The position numbers and the translations under genes are program-made. 64,000 nucleotides of DNA from a phage, in the sequence record PZ445488.1; one strand, given 5' to 3'. The notes below the pieces were generated by a model, which was not told where the DNA came from, searched no databases, and saw nothing but the letters and a program-made list of their open reading frames with translations. Of this stretch, positions 1,867-11,554 are shown piece by piece. Position 1 is the stretch's first letter; every line of letters begins with the position of its first letter.

Positions 1867-3849
1867 ATGTCACTTCTCTCTCCGGGCGTTGAGCTCAAAG
1901 AAACTACCGTACAGAGTACTGTAGTTAATAACTCCACTGGTACTGCTGCCCTGGCTGGAAAATTCCAATGGGGACCTGCATTCCAGATTAAACAAATCAC
2001 TGATGAAGTTGCATTGGTTGATATGTTTGGTACTCCTAATACGGATACAGCAGATTATTTCATGTCTGCTATGAACTTCCTTCAATATGGTAATGACCTT
2101 CGTGTTGTACGCGCAGTTGATCGTGATACTGCTAAGAACTCATCTCCTGTAGCAGGCAATATTGAATTCACAATCTCTGCTGCTGGTAGTAACTATGCAG
2201 TTGGTGATAAAATTATCGTTAAGTATTTGACCGAAACTGTTGAAGCAGATGGTTATGTCACTTCAGTTGATGTCGATGGTAAAATTCTTAACATTTATAT
2301 CCCAACCGGTAAAATTATTGCTCGTGCAAAAGAAATTAATGAATATCCTGCATTGGGTTCTAACTGGACCGCCGAAGTTGCCAGTTCTTCTTCTGGACTT
2401 TCTGGCGTTATTACAATTGGTTCTATCGTAACCGATTCAGGTATTCTGTTAACTGAAGTTGAAACTTCTGAAGAAGCTATTACTTCTCTAACTTTCCAAG
2501 AATCTATTAAAAAATATGGTGTCCCAGGCGTAGTTGCTCTTTATCCTGGTGAACTTGGCGACCAGCTCGAAATTGAAATCGTATCTAAAGCAGACTATGA
2601 CAAAGGTGCTTCAGCTCAGTTAAAAATTTATCCTGATGGTGGTACTCGTGCATCTACTGCTAAAGCAATCTTTGGATATGGCCCACAAACTGATGACCAA
2701 TATGCAATTATCGTTCGTCGTAACGATGCTGTAGTCCAGAGCGTAGTTCTTTCTACTAAACGCGGTGAACGCGATATTTATGGTAGTAATATCTTTATTG
2801 ATGATTTCTTTGCTAAAGGCGCAAGCAATTATATTTTCGCTACGGCACAAGGTTGGCCAAAAGGTTTCTCTGGCGTAATCAAACTGGGTGGTGGCTTATC
2901 ATCTAATGAAACGGTTGACGCCGGTGATTTAATGGAAGCTTGGGATTTGTTTGCTGACCGCGAATCTGTTAATGCGCAGTTGTTTATTGCCGGTTCTTGT
3001 GCAGGTGAATCTTTAGAAGTTGCTTCTACAGTTCAGAAACATGTTGTAGCAATTGGTGATTCTCGTCAAGATTGCTTGGTTCTTTGCTCACCGCCACGTT
3101 CAACTATAGTCGGTATTCCTGTTAATCGTGCAGTTGATAATCTGGTCGATTGGCGTACTGCATCAGGAACTTACACTGATAATAACTTTAATGTAAGTTC
3201 TACTTATGCTGCTATTGATGGTAACTATAAATATCAATATGACAAATATAATGACGTGAATCGTTGGGTTCCGTTAGCTGCTGATATTGCAGGTCTTTGT
3301 GCTCGCACAGACAATATTTCTCAGCCTTGGATGTCTCCGGCCGGTTATAACCGTGGACAAATTCTTAACGTTATTAAGCTTGCAATTGAAACTCGTCAAC
3401 CACAACGTGATCGTTTGTATCAGGAAGCTATTAACCCTGTTACTGGTACCGGCGGTGATGGATATGTTCTGTATGGTGATAAAACTGCCACTTCCGTTCC
3501 TTCACCATTTGACCGTATTAACGTTCGTCGTTTGTTCAATATGGTTAAAACGAACATTGGTTCAGCATCTAAATATCGCCTGTTTGAATTGAACAACGCA
3601 TTTACCCGTTCTTCTTTCCGTACAGAGACTTCTCAATATCTACAGGGTATTAAAGCTCTCGGTGGTGTATATAACTTTAAAGTTGTTTGTGATACTACCA
3701 ATAACACCCCAGCAGTTATCGACCGTAATGAATTTGTAGCTACTTTCTACTTACAACCTGCCCGCTCGATAAATTATATTACGTTGAACTTTGTAGCAAC
3801 AGCAACTGGTGCCGATTTCGACGAACTGATTGGTGCTGTAGGTGGTTAA
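1867..3849 (+). CDS. 18: tail sheath protein (gp18)
   Basis: 660-aa ORF; N-terminus MSLLSPGVELKETTVQST and length match T4 gp18 (659 aa) as recalled. Confidence 0.95.
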   Translation: MSLLSPGVELKETTVQSTVVNNSTGTAALAGKFQWGPAFQIKQITDEVALVDMFGTPNTDTADYFMSAMNFLQYGNDLRVVRAVDRDTAKNSSPVAGNIEFTISAAGSNYAVGDKIIVKYLTETVEADGYVTSVDVDGKILNIYIPTGKIIARAKEINEYPALGSNWTAEVASSSSGLSGVITIGSIVTDSGILLTEVETSEEAITSLTFQESIKKYGVPGVVALYPGELGDQLEIEIVSKADYDKGASAQLKIYPDGGTRASTAKAIFGYGPQTDDQYAIIVRRNDAVVQSVVLSTKRGERDIYGSNIFIDDFFAKGASNYIFATAQGWPKGFSGVIKLGGGLSSNETVDAGDLMEAWDLFADRESVNAQLFIAGSCAGESLEVASTVQKHVVAIGDSRQDCLVLCSPPRSTIVGIPVNRAVDNLVDWRTASGTYTDNNFNVSSTYAAIDGNYKYQYDKYNDVNRWVPLAADIAGLCARTDNISQPWMSPAGYNRGQILNVIKLAIETRQPQRDRLYQEAINPVTGTGGDGYVLYGDKTATSVPSPFDRINVRRLFNMVKTNIGSASKYRLFELNNAFTRSSFRTETSQYLQGIKALGGVYNFKVVCDTTNNTPAVIDRNEFVATFYLQPARSINYITLNFVATATGADFDELIGAVGG

Positions 3850-8274: not shown

Positions 8275-9843
8275 ATGACTACTATCAAAACTAAAGCTCA
8301 GCTCGTAGACAAATGGAAAGAACTGCTGGAAGGTGAAGGCCTGCCGGAAATCGCTAATAGCAAGCAGGCTATTATCGCTAAAATCTTCGAAAACCAGGAA
8401 AAAGATTTCGAAGTATCCCCTGAATATAAAGACGAGAAAATCGCTCAGGCATTTGGTTCTTTCTTGACCGAAGCTGAAATTGGTGGTGACCATGGTTATA
8501 ATGCTCAGAACATCGCAGCAGGTCAAACCTCTGGTGCAGTAACCCAAATTGGGCCGGCAGTTATGGGTATGGTTCGTCGTGCTATTCCTAATCTGATTGC
8601 TTTTGATATTTGTGGTGTTCAGCCTATGAACAGCCCGACCGGTCAGGTATTTGCTCTCCGTGCAGTATATGGTAAAGACCCTATCGCTGCTGGCGCTAAA
8701 GAAGCTTTCCATCCGATGTATGCCCCGGACGCGATGTTCTCTGGTCAGGGTGCTGCTAAGAAATTCCCAGCTCTGGCTGCTGACACTACTACTGTTGTAG
8801 GTGATATCTATACTCACTTCTTCCAAGAAACTGGTACTGTATATCTGCAAGCTTCTGCTGTCGTAACACTTGATTCTGGTGCAACTGATGCAGCTAAATT
8901 AGATGCAGAAGTTAAGAAACAAATGGAAGCTGGTGCACTGGTAGAAATCGCTGAAGGTATGGCTACTTCTATCGCTGAACTCCAGGAAGGTTTCAACGGT
9001 TCTACCGATAACCCATGGAATGAAATGGGCTTCCGTATCGATAAACAAGTTATCGAAGCTAAATCTCGCCAGCTGAAAGCTGCTTACTCTATCGAATTAG
9101 CACAAGACCTCCGTGCAGTACACGGTATGGATGCTGATGCTGAACTGAGCGGTATTCTGGCTACAGAAATTATGCTAGAAATCAACCGTGAAGTTGTTGG
9201 TTGGATTAACTACTCAGCACAGGTTGGTAAATCCGGTATGACCCTGACTCCGGGTTCTAAAGCTGGTGTATTTGACTTCCAGGACCCGATTGATATCCGT
9301 GGTGCTCGTTGGGCCGGTGAAAGCTTTAAATCTCTGTTGTTCCAGATTGATAAAGAAGCAGTTGAAATTGCTCGTCAAACCGGTCGTGGTGAAGGTAACT
9401 TCATTATCGCTTCCCGTAACGTAGTTAACGTACTGGCTTCAGTTGATACTGGTATTTCTTACGCTGCACAGGGTCTGGCTTCTGGTTTTAATACCGACAC
9501 TACTAAGTCTGTATTTGCCGGTGTACTTGGTGGTAAATACCGCGTATACATCGACCAGTATGCTAAACAGGATTACTTCACCGTTGGTTACAAAGGCGCT
9601 AACGAAATGGATGCAGGTATCTACTATGCTCCTTACGTTGCACTTACCCCACTGCGTGGTTCCGATCCTAAGAACTTCCAGCCGGTAATGGGCTTTAAAA
9701 CTCGTTACGGTATCGGTGTTAACCCGTTTGCTGAAAGTTCCCTGCAGGCTCCAGGTGCTCGCATCCAGTCCGGTATGCCGTCTATCCTGAACAGCCTTGG
9801 TAAGAACGCTTACTTTAGACGCGTCTACGTTAAAGGAATTTAA
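8275..9843 (+). CDS. 23: major capsid protein (gp23)
   Basis: 522-aa ORF; matches T4 gp23 (521 aa) along its length as recalled. Confidence 0.97.
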   Translation: MTTIKTKAQLVDKWKELLEGEGLPEIANSKQAIIAKIFENQEKDFEVSPEYKDEKIAQAFGSFLTEAEIGGDHGYNAQNIAAGQTSGAVTQIGPAVMGMVRRAIPNLIAFDICGVQPMNSPTGQVFALRAVYGKDPIAAGAKEAFHPMYAPDAMFSGQGAAKKFPALAADTTTVVGDIYTHFFQETGTVYLQASAVVTLDSGATDAAKLDAEVKKQMEAGALVEIAEGMATSIAELQEGFNGSTDNPWNEMGFRIDKQVIEAKSRQLKAAYSIELAQDLRAVHGMDADAELSGILATEIMLEINREVVGWINYSAQVGKSGMTLTPGSKAGVFDFQDPIDIRGARWAGESFKSLLFQIDKEAVEIARQTGRGEGNFIIASRNVVNVLASVDTGISYAAQGLASGFNTDTTKSVFAGVLGGKYRVYIDQYAKQDYFTVGYKGANEMDAGIYYAPYVALTPLRGSDPKNFQPVMGFKTRYGIGVNPFAESSLQAPGARIQSGMPSILNSLGKNAYFRRVYVKGI

Positions 9844-9872
9844 TGCTTTAACGTTAAAATACATAACCTTAT

Positions 9873-9890
9873 GGGAGACTTCGGTCTCCC
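9873..9890 (+). terminator. intrinsic terminator hairpin GGGAGAC-TTCG-GTCTCCC followed by T-run (gene 23 terminator)
   Basis: 7-bp GC-rich stem, UUCG tetraloop, then ATTTTTGG; 30 nt after the gene 23 stop. Confidence 0.75.
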
Positions 9891-9900
9891 ATTTTTGGTT

Positions 9901-10170
9901 TTATTTCTGTGCAATTTCGATGTAAGTTTTCAAAATATTTTGCCAATTAGGCATACCTTCTTGGACATATGCCGGAGAACCGTCTTTGTTTTTGAATGAT
10001 GCAAGTTTATCAGTGGCCCAATAACCTTTAGCTCGAGCTTCAGAATCAACTTTCATCCATACTTTGTTGAAGGCATTACCATTAACTTTTGCACCATATT
10101 TTTCTACTAACTTAACTGCTTCAGCTTCCAGAACTTTTAAAGTATCTCTTAAGAAACGTGCTTTAGTCAT
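9901..10170 (-). CDS. hypothetical protein, antisense early ORF between genes 23 and 24
   Basis: 89-aa ORF on the opposite strand to the late genes; SD-like GGAG upstream and a near-consensus early promoter at about 10201-10230; I recognise no homolog; sits where T4 has segD. Confidence 0.5.
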   Translation of the reverse strand: MTKARFLRDTLKVLEAEAVKLVEKYGAKVNGNAFNKVWMKVDSEARAKGYWATDKLASFKNKDGSPAYVQEGMPNWQNILKTYIEIAQK

Positions 10171-10200
10171 TTTGTTTACTCCTCTGTAGTTGATAAGTCT

Positions 10201-10230
10201 ATAGTATCACATACCAAATACGTTGTAAAC
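10201..10230 (-). promoter_or_regulatory. T4 early-type (sigma70) promoter for the antisense ORF
   Basis: minus strand reads GTTTAC - 18 nt - TACTAT, then a short 5' UTR with SD before the ATG; same architecture as other early promoters in the window. Confidence 0.55.
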
Positions 10231-10236
10231 AATCTT

Positions 10237-10244
10237 TATAAATA
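10237..10244 (+). promoter_or_regulatory. T4-type late promoter TATAAATA upstream of gene 24
   Basis: exact TATAAATA about 27 nt upstream of the gene 24 ATG. Confidence 0.6.
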
Positions 10245-10270
10245 ATCTATATCACATAAGGAAAAATGCA

Positions 10271-11554
10271 ATGAGTAAAATCCAAAAATTATTGCGTGAA
10301 TCTACAACGTCTACTAGCAACTCAATTGGTCGCCCAAATCTCGTTGCTTTGACTCGCGCTACGACTAAATTAATATATTCTGACATTGTGGCAACACAAA
10401 GAACTAATCAACCTGTTGCTGCTTTTTATGGTATTAAATATCTTAACCCAGACAACGAATTAACATTTAAAACTGGTGCTACTTATGCAGGTGAAGCTGG
10501 ATATGTAGACCGAGAAAAAATTACCGAGCTCACAGAAGAATCAAAAGTCACACTAAATAAAGGCGATTTTTTCAAATATAATAATATCGTCTATAAAGTG
10601 TTAGAAGATACACCGTTTGCAGATATTCAGGAAAGTGATCTAGAATTAGCTCTTCAGATTGCGGTCGTTCATTTAAAGGTACGGTTATTTTCAGATGCAG
10701 CGGTAACAAGCAAATTTGAAAGCTCTGGTAGCGAAATTTCTGATGCAAGATTCCAGATTAATAAATGGCAAACTTCAGTCAAATCTCGTAAACTTAAAAC
10801 TGGCCTCACGGTTGAATTAGCGCAAGATTTAGAAGCGAATGGATTTGATGCCCCTAACTTCTTAGAAGATTTGCTTGCTACTGAAATGGCTGATGAAATT
10901 AATAAAGATATTCTTCAGTCTTTAATTACTGTATCGAAACGTTATAAAGTTACTGGAATTACTGACACCGGATTTATTGACTTGAGTTATGCGTCTGCTC
11001 CGGAAGCAGGTCGTTCGTTATATCGAATGGTGTGTGAAATGGTATCACACATTCAAAAAGAGTCAACTTATACTGCAACGTTTTGCGTAGCTTCAGCTCG
11101 TGCAGCTGCTATTCTTGCTGCTTCGGGTTGGTTAAAACATAAGCCGGAAGATGATAAGTACCTTTCACAAAATGCTTATGGATTCTTGGCAAATGGATTA
11201 CCTCTTTACTGCGATACCAACAGTCCGTTAGATTATGTTATTGTGGGTGTTGTAGAAAATATCGGCGAAAAAGAGATTGTAGGGTCCATCTTTTATGCTC
11301 CATACACTGAAGGAATGGATTTAGACGACCCGGAACATGTCGGTGCATTTAAAGTTGTAGTTGATCCGGAAAGCTTACAACCGTCTATAGGTTTATTGGT
11401 TAGATATGCTTTATCAGCAAATCCTTACACAGTAGCAAAAGATGAAAAAGAAGCGAGAGTAATTGATGGCGGGGACATGGATAAAATGGCAGGACGTTCA
11501 GACTTGTCTGTTTTACTCGGTGTTAAATTGCCTAAAATTATTATAGATGAATAA
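10271..11554 (+). CDS. 24: capsid vertex protein (gp24)
   Basis: 427-aa ORF; matches T4 gp24 (427 aa) as recalled; paralog of gp23. Confidence 0.95.
   Translation: MSKIQKLLRESTTSTSNSIGRPNLVALTRATTKLIYSDIVATQRTNQPVAAFYGIKYLNPDNELTFKTGATYAGEAGYVDREKITELTEESKVTLNKGDFFKYNNIVYKVLEDTPFADIQESDLELALQIAVVHLKVRLFSDAAVTSKFESSGSEISDARFQINKWQTSVKSRKLKTGLTVELAQDLEANGFDAPNFLEDLLATEMADEINKDILQSLITVSKRYKVTGITDTGFIDLSYASAPEAGRSLYRMVCEMVSHIQKESTYTATFCVASARAAAILAASGWLKHKPEDDKYLSQNAYGFLANGLPLYCDTNSPLDYVIVGVVENIGEKEIVGSIFYAPYTEGMDLDDPEHVGAFKVVVDPESLQPSIGLLVRYALSANPYTVAKDEKEARVIDGGDMDKMAGRSDLSVLLGVKLPKIIIDE

Follow-up and report, generated by a model that had tools for sequence, protein, structure and literature searches.

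One described counterpart of the locus studied here is found in bacteriophage T4, where segD lies antisense between genes 23 and 24, in the same strand sense as the small ORF that is the subject of this report. The review of Edgell et al. (2010) also places T4 segD antisense in this interval, finds no identifiable promoter for it, and expects its transcript to be vanishingly low (PMC2988022). T4 omics data place segD RNA in the "early" class and show the SegD protein from early time points onward (PMC9697503 supplements). A second description comes from RB69, for which Nolan et al. (2006) presented the GTTTAC-type consensus of early promoters and predicted one such promoter, Pe:109605 (109555-109605, minus strand, HMM score 29.9), that falls between RB69ORF189c (start 109531) and gene 24 (start 109633) (PMC1524935). 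The RB69 version of the promoter discussed below was, in other words, already published as a prediction in 2006.

The window (by which we mean the whole 64-kb stretch of phage DNA that was analysed) belongs to an RB69-like Mosigvirus. Its 23/24 interval is 100% identical to a fragment of Escherichia phage CEV1 and shares 95-99.6% identity with over 100 genomes of Mosigvirus (RB69-like), in which the ORF carries the label "hypothetical protein". The features of the interval and its borders are the following:

8275-9843, plus strand: gene 23, major capsid protein, 522 aa (from the ORF list; the orthologous locus is annotated in PhAPEC2 and RB69)
9871-9902, plus strand: intrinsic terminator of gene 23, with a 9-bp stem and UUCG loop (9871-9892) followed by a T-run (9893-9902)
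9901-10170, minus strand: the 89-aa ORF, with an ATG start and the stop codon included (from the ORF list)
10179-10184, minus strand: Shine-Dalgarno sequence GAGGAG, 8 nt 5' of the ATG
10201-10230, minus strand: predicted sigma-70 promoter of the T-even early type (from the scan, motif enrichment, positional conservation and RB69 Pe:109605)
10237-10244, plus strand: late promoter of gene 24, TATAAATA, 6 nt from the early -35 hexamer (from the sequence)
10271-11554, plus strand: gene 24, capsid vertex protein, 427 aa (from the ORF list and the PhAPEC2 annotation)

The slot is thus bounded by late genes, gene 23 on the upstream side and gene 24 on the downstream side. The original prediction, made from the letters alone, had described a gap of about 430 bp holding an 89-aa ORF opposite to the capsid genes. 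This is correct (427 bp lie between the end of gene 23 at 9843 and the start of gene 24 at 10271, and the ORF runs on the minus strand from an ATG at 10170 to a TAA at 9903-9901), and all the sequence features that it named, from the interval and the ORF to the promoters and the hairpin, are present. A search of the interval against Rfam returned nothing near any gathering threshold. Two observations concern the flanks. Positions 9844-9870, between the gene 23 stop codon and the hairpin, are unlike the corresponding positions of the other Mosigviruses PhAPEC2, RB69 and mogra and are identical to the matching flank of phage F2, a carrier of a JS10-type ORF together with segD; this identity suggests a recombination boundary at the gene 23 terminator. 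On the other side, gene 24 is single-copy in the window and in T4, whereas it is present as a tandem duplicate (24a/24b, both of the Gp23 family) in JS98, VR20 and the metagenomic loci L010 and L011.

The ORF list also contains antisense ORFs of 141 and 194 aa inside gene 23, so the length of an ORF is, by itself, no evidence for a gene in this region. Neither is the ORF without relatives, as had been thought: the claim that it has no homolog is wrong, since RB69ORF188c/RB69ORF189c, JS98 orf173 (EpJS98_0173), VR7ORF190c and VR20 gp246 are the same gene, and residues 1-89 match positions 1-90 of the 90-position profile of PHROG 6003 ("unknown function") with an E value of 2.1e-45 (hmmscan). The ORF of PhAPEC2 is annotated as similar to RB69ORF188c, and the 89-aa ORF of the window is the intact form of RB69ORF188c/189c. 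A tblastn search matched 241 phage records, 239 of them with a coverage of at least 80%; in short, about 240 phage records already annotate the gene, calling it a hypothetical protein.

The small ORF is found in essentially all the Mosigviruses examined and, in the same place and orientation, in Dhakavirus, in Gaprivervirus, in some Tequatroviruses and in metagenomic T4-like phages. We verified that it lies between gp23 and gp24 and runs opposite to them in PhAPEC2, JS98, VR20, 04086, W143, RB69, L010 and L012 (the metagenomic T4-like loci L010-L012 are among those that support the synteny). The RB69, JS98 and VR20 relatives share with the window not only this position and orientation, but also the layout of promoter and Shine-Dalgarno sequence; the latter reads GAGGAG in JS98, F2 and W143 and GGAG in VR20 in the upstream sequences compared. 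The Dhakavirus (JS98) and Gaprivervirus (VR20) copies are 31-38% identical to the window ORF at the amino acid level, and so are those of 04086, of the Tequatrovirus-classed W143 and F2 and of two metagenomic T4-like contigs. Taking only pairs in which synonymous sites are unsaturated, we obtained dN/dS values of 0.09 (JS98/F2), 0.14 (JS98/04086) and 0.03 (F2/04086), and the window and PhAPEC2 differ by synonymous changes only (pS 0.036, pN 0). Values of about 0.03-0.14 show purifying selection on the small ORF. Because synteny is conserved at 31-38% identity and dN/dS is well below 1, we regard the ORF as a genuine protein-coding gene, and the proposal of a coding gene opposite the late capsid genes is borne out. 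It has no paralog elsewhere in the window, and the literature yielded no functional study of the small ORF or of PHROG 6003.

Loss of the reading frame in close relatives, which the original prediction held would tell against the ORF, does occur, in RB69 and mogra only; the 239 of 241 tblastn matches mentioned above look full length. The RB69 reference (NC_004928, L009 locus 9292-9532) has two fragments, ORF188c (41 aa) and ORF189c (29 aa), in place of the gene that is intact in the window; what separates them, by comparison with every other Mosigvirus examined, is one inserted nucleotide, one deleted nucleotide and clustered substitutions. The mogra record is short of one A within an A-run. 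These lesions may be real losses suffered in laboratory passage, or they may be sequencing errors, and for the latter reason the case for dispensability rests mainly on the phages in which the slot is empty. With both the empty slot of most sampled Tequatroviruses and the broken ORFs of the RB69 and mogra records in mind, the cassette can be called dispensable.

What occupies the slot varies widely among T-even phages. It is empty in most of the Tequatroviruses sampled: in RB5 the interval measures 83 bp and holds only TATAAATA and the hairpin, and 17 Tequatrovirus rows from a spread sample, with a span of about 856 bp, can be taken to lack an insert. It holds segD alone in T4 and T6, the small ORF alone in the Mosigviruses sampled and in JS98, VR20 and W143, and both genes in F2, 04086 and IME08. 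The suspicion that the 23/24 junction is a hotspot is therefore well founded (empty in RB5, segD in T4 and T6, the small ORF in the window, the small ORF plus segD in F2, 04086 and IME08). In F2, segD starts 3 nt past the stop codon of the small ORF, and 04086 has the same layout, so that the two genes form a tight operon (L007 2501-3430 in F2, L004 2501-3442 in 04086). The annotation of 04086 omits the 223-aa segD ORF and truncates gene 23, whose 519-aa ORF is in fact intact. W143, which is classed as a Tequatrovirus, has at L014 644-910 an ORF of Dhakavirus type that is nearly identical to that of JS98, together with its promoter and hairpin; W143 indicates that the cassette is exchanged laterally between genera by way of the conserved 23/24 flanks.

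The promoter of the small ORF deserves a closer description. On the minus strand, GTTTAC (10230-10225) is followed after an 18-nt spacer by TACTAT (10206-10201), and the -10 hexamer is extended by a TG at 10209-10208 (TGn; TGTGATACTAT), so that it reads TGTGA-TACTAT. The transcription start is predicted near 10194. An A/T-rich tract, TATTTATAAAG, lies upstream of the -35 hexamer, and the site thus combines all the traits of a T-even early promoter (GTTTAC as -35, a spacer of 17-18 nt, TAnnnT as -10, the TG and the A/T-rich upstream tract). It is the late promoter TATAAATA, read as its complement (10244-10237), that makes up the A/T-rich tract just 5' of the early -35, which gives a back-to-back promoter module. 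The early GTTTAC-18-TACTAT promoter was found with the spacer that had been proposed for it and back-to-back with the gene 24 late promoter, and the same back-to-back arrangement is seen in JS98, VR20, T4, F2 and W143.

The window itself provides an independent measure of this motif. GTTTAC-N17/18-TANNNT occurs 15 times in the 64 kb, as compared with 2.07 expected occurrences and a maximum of 5 in 100 shuffles, and 14 of the 15 sites lie on the minus strand, where T-even genomes have their early genes. The other minus-strand sites include 13048, 25537, 32450, 32894, 36445, 38571, 39977, 41160, 48731, 52035 and 62908; five of them (25537, 36445, 32894, 39977 and 52035) have the extended form GTG(A/T)TACTAT found at the small ORF. 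The 15 sites provide, as a by-product, a candidate map of early promoters for the whole window. Outside the window, JS98, F2 and W143 have the same hexamers at the same distance from the ATG with a spacer sequence that has diverged, and the VR20 promoter is GTTTAC-18-CATAAT. The assignment to the early class therefore agrees with the enriched GTTTAC motif of the window and with the conservation of its position across genera, and we consider the promoter of the small ORF well supported as a prediction. We found in the literature neither transcript nor protein data for the small ORF in Mosigviruses.

These observations bear directly on T4. The original prediction had implied a contrast between the antisense ORF of the window and the segD of T4. 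This contrast fails, since segD is also antisense and is preceded by a homologous promoter and 5'UTR. T4 NC_000866 (L006) 3233-3300, minus strand, is homologous to window positions 10171-10245, and the two stay in register from the late promoter across an ATTTACA-17-TATTAT that carries the TG to the end of the 5'UTR at the ATG, beyond which T4 continues with segD. In T4, segD is thus preceded by a degenerate, yet recognisably homologous, copy of the early promoter, and the early segD RNA and protein reported for T4 fit an active promoter in the slot.

At the other end of the cassette, the ORF had been said to abut the gene 23 terminator, and indeed its stop codon (9901-9903) overlaps the T-run (9893-9902). 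The hairpin has a folding energy of -18.9 kcal/mol on the plus strand and -17.8 kcal/mol on the minus strand (z about -4.4), and our terminator scan called it on the plus strand only: its minus-strand copy has no U-run, the tail being AUAAGGUUAUG, and does not make a Rho-independent terminator for the ORF transcript. When the scan was extended into the gene 23 antisense, no terminator-like site appeared on the minus strand before 8783. The gene 23 hairpin is kept in JS98, T4, RB5, F2 and W143. In VR20 its place is taken by another hairpin, flanked by T-runs on either side, and VR20 is the only one of these phages in which a hairpin plus U-run stands on the transcribed strand of the ORF.

The predicted product is small, hydrophilic and basic (pI 9.6, net charge about +5), without cysteine and without a transmembrane segment, and the pI is 9.5-9.7 in seven of eight orthologs. 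Structure prediction, one of the checks originally proposed, gave a confident AlphaFold2 model (mean pLDDT 90.3, pTM 0.78, from a 10-sequence alignment) for which we found no fold relative of known function; it consists of a helix (3-25), a second helix (31-48), a beta-hairpin (56-70) and a third helix (76-88). Residues 30-35 carry a motif, (N/H)GNxxN, that is kept family-wide, with G31, N32 and N35 invariant, and K3, F6 and Q70 are likewise invariant across the whole family. Searches of Pfam, NCBIfam and PDB, by sequence (phmmer and profile) and by fold, found no relative of known function. The sole Pfam match, DUF4859, was rejected: it reaches 17.9 bits for a cut-off of 22.6 and is shared by only two of ten family members. 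A homing endonuclease of the GIY-YIG/Seg kind was also rejected, there being no nuclease match in Pfam or NCBIfam and the protein having 89 aa and a helical fold. A late or structural role is judged unlikely, given the early-type promoter and an upstream stretch that, as far as it was read, shows no evident late promoter. In the PhAPEC2 annotation, the neighbours are marked as virion proteins and the small ORF is not.

More distant searches show that the family is tiny. When 1.84 billion representatives were scanned exhaustively with a HMMER profile, there were 10 hits, of which some few were judged spurious (P0017 and P0020, which are repeat proteins, and P0021, an apparent chimeric assembly, were discarded). 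A second profile search, word-indexed and run against 5.8 billion clusters, returned 25 clusters of stand-alone proteins of 83-93 aa or fragments of them. Across the remote-homology searches there are about 20 clusters of such stand-alone phage proteins, none of them meaningfully named; the JGI name "curcumin reductase" on one cluster is an apparent mis-annotation. Acinetobacter phage ABPH49 (Vequintavirinae; L008) and the metagenomic phage contigs L015-L019 have homologs with 29-39% identity. In ABPH49 and in L016, L017, L018 and L019, the homolog is part of a long unidirectional array of small unannotated ORFs, an arrangement typical of early accessory genes. In L015, a different phage type, it comes directly after the tail genes.

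From all this we conclude that the locus is a self-contained early accessory cassette (a promoter, a strong ribosome-binding site and an ORF of 89 codons) in the hypervariable 23/24 slot. We also think it rather probable that the product is an early-expressed, dispensable, stoichiometric binder of host nucleic acid or of an acidic host protein. Most of the weight that we give to this proposal comes from the parts documented above, namely a real gene, an early cassette and an accessory distribution. The function itself, as a binder of a host macromolecule, we purely infer, and a basic charge alone is no demonstration of nucleic-acid binding.

Several other explanations have to be considered. 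That there is no functional gene here, and that the ORF arose by chance or is a decaying remnant in a spacer, might be argued from the broken frames of RB69 and mogra and from the long chance ORFs antisense in gene 23. We give this hardly any credit: synteny over a deep divergence, dN/dS values of 0.03-0.14, full-length matches in 239 of 241 records, a conserved Shine-Dalgarno sequence and promoter and a confident fold all speak for a gene, and the dN/dS result effectively refutes the idea. A gene may nevertheless be of interest mainly for its RNA, if antisense transcription through the terminator modulated the expression of 23 and 24 or the read-through between them, the ORF being secondary. 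Since the hairpin has no U-run on the minus strand, and no terminator-like site follows on that strand before 8783, read-through into the gene 23 antisense is plausible, and early "anti-late" RNA is a classical observation in T4. However, it is the amino acid sequence that is under purifying selection, the ORF remaining intact at 31-38% identity where the DNA is synonymously saturated; the strong Shine-Dalgarno sequence is conserved; and the VR20 hairpin, with its T-runs on both sides, would halt an antisense transcript. In addition, RB5 and other phages whose slot is empty express both capsid genes in the absence of the cassette, and the early promoters of T-even phages are active before late transcription starts and are then shut off. 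For these last two reasons the modulation of read-through from 23 to 24, which had been put forward, is unlikely, and an RNA role as a whole seems to us very improbable indeed.

The remaining alternatives accept the protein and differ in what it is for. One is that the ORF is selfish, hitch-hiking cargo of the SegD homing endonuclease, spread by co-conversion of genomes that lack segD. The tight operon of ORF and segD in F2, 04086 and IME08 favours such a scenario, as do the JS98-type copies in the Tequatrovirus-classed F2 and W143, which testify to lateral transfer through the junction. It has to contend with the fact that most carriers have no segD (all the Mosigviruses sampled, JS98 and VR20), that dN/dS is far below 1, that homologs exist in phages without a nearby seg gene, and that the activity and target site of SegD itself are uncharacterised (PMC2988022). 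Hitch-hiking explains the lateral spread seen in W143 and F2, but not purifying selection in carriers without segD, and we hold it to be very improbable. Another alternative is a specific anti-defence factor, that is, an early inhibitor of an immune system that natural hosts possess and laboratory strains lack. The early promoter and the small size are in keeping with this, and so are the accessory distribution in a hypervariable slot, the spread between genera and into unrelated phages, the strong purifying selection among environmental isolates and the apparent decay in the laboratory strain RB69. The same features, however, fit any early host-takeover gene, and the protein has no likeness to solved or catalogued proteins, with the anti-defence proteins in PDB, searched by sequence and by fold, included. 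The anti-defence or anti-host role suggested in the original prediction is therefore possible but unsupported by any match of known function in Pfam, NCBIfam, PDB or the fold searches, and we regard it as unlikely. The more elaborate version, in which an early effector of new fold neutralises a defence or a nucleic-acid-associated factor of the host, is kept in wild T-evens, disappears from laboratory lineages (RB69 among them) and moves between phage genera through the 23/24 homing hotspot, is to our mind equally doubtful.

Returning to the early accessory cassette and its host-binding product, we can outline how it might work. Within minutes of infection, the sigma-70 RNA polymerase of the host would initiate near 10194 and transcribe the ORF. 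The transcript would cross the gene 23 hairpin, which is no terminator in the minus direction and probably acts as a 3' stabiliser, unless Rho ends transcription in the untranslated gene 23 antisense. Translation would yield a small, soluble, strongly basic protein of three helices and a beta-hairpin, most likely a conditionally useful host-takeover factor and neither an enzyme nor a component of the virion. As to history, the small ORF may be the older resident of the slot. The segD gene would have inserted downstream of it, borrowing its promoter, as in F2, 04086 and IME08, and T4 would then have lost the small ORF and been left with promoter and segD. We infer this order (the ORF first, segD later, then the loss in T4) by parsimony, as the simplest history.

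The gene is an ordinary, already catalogued early accessory gene of T-even phages, one among many small early T-even ORFs, and as it stands its importance is limited. It does reveal a conserved bidirectional module in the 23/24 slot, in which the complement of the late TATAAATA stands just upstream of the early -35. The degenerate T4 copy of the promoter also offers segD a candidate for the promoter that a 2010 review found missing (PMC2988022). Finally, an isolated cassette with natural nulls (RB69 and mogra), relatives with an empty slot and a confident fold without known relatives is a clean candidate for a function screen.

How does this locus compare, then, with systems that are already known? 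It has no sequence or fold similarity to the characterised early proteins of T4 in PDB. It is isolated between essential late genes, in contrast to the host-takeover ORFs of T-even phages, which sit in plastic regions or early operons. In other respects it resembles the novel ORFs of RB69 (Nolan et al. 2006, PMC1524935) and the nearby early genes rnlB, 24.2 and 24.3, which are likewise small, on the minus strand, patchy in their distribution and equipped with a GTTTAC-type promoter. The segD cassette of T4 shares with it the slot, the antisense orientation, the upstream region next to the gene 24 late promoter and the hairpin terminator, but encodes an unrelated product, SegD being a free-standing homing endonuclease of the GIY-YIG family with 223 aa, and the window product a protein of 89 aa without a nuclease signature. 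In F2-type phages, the two genes meet in a single slot, where they are probably transcribed together.
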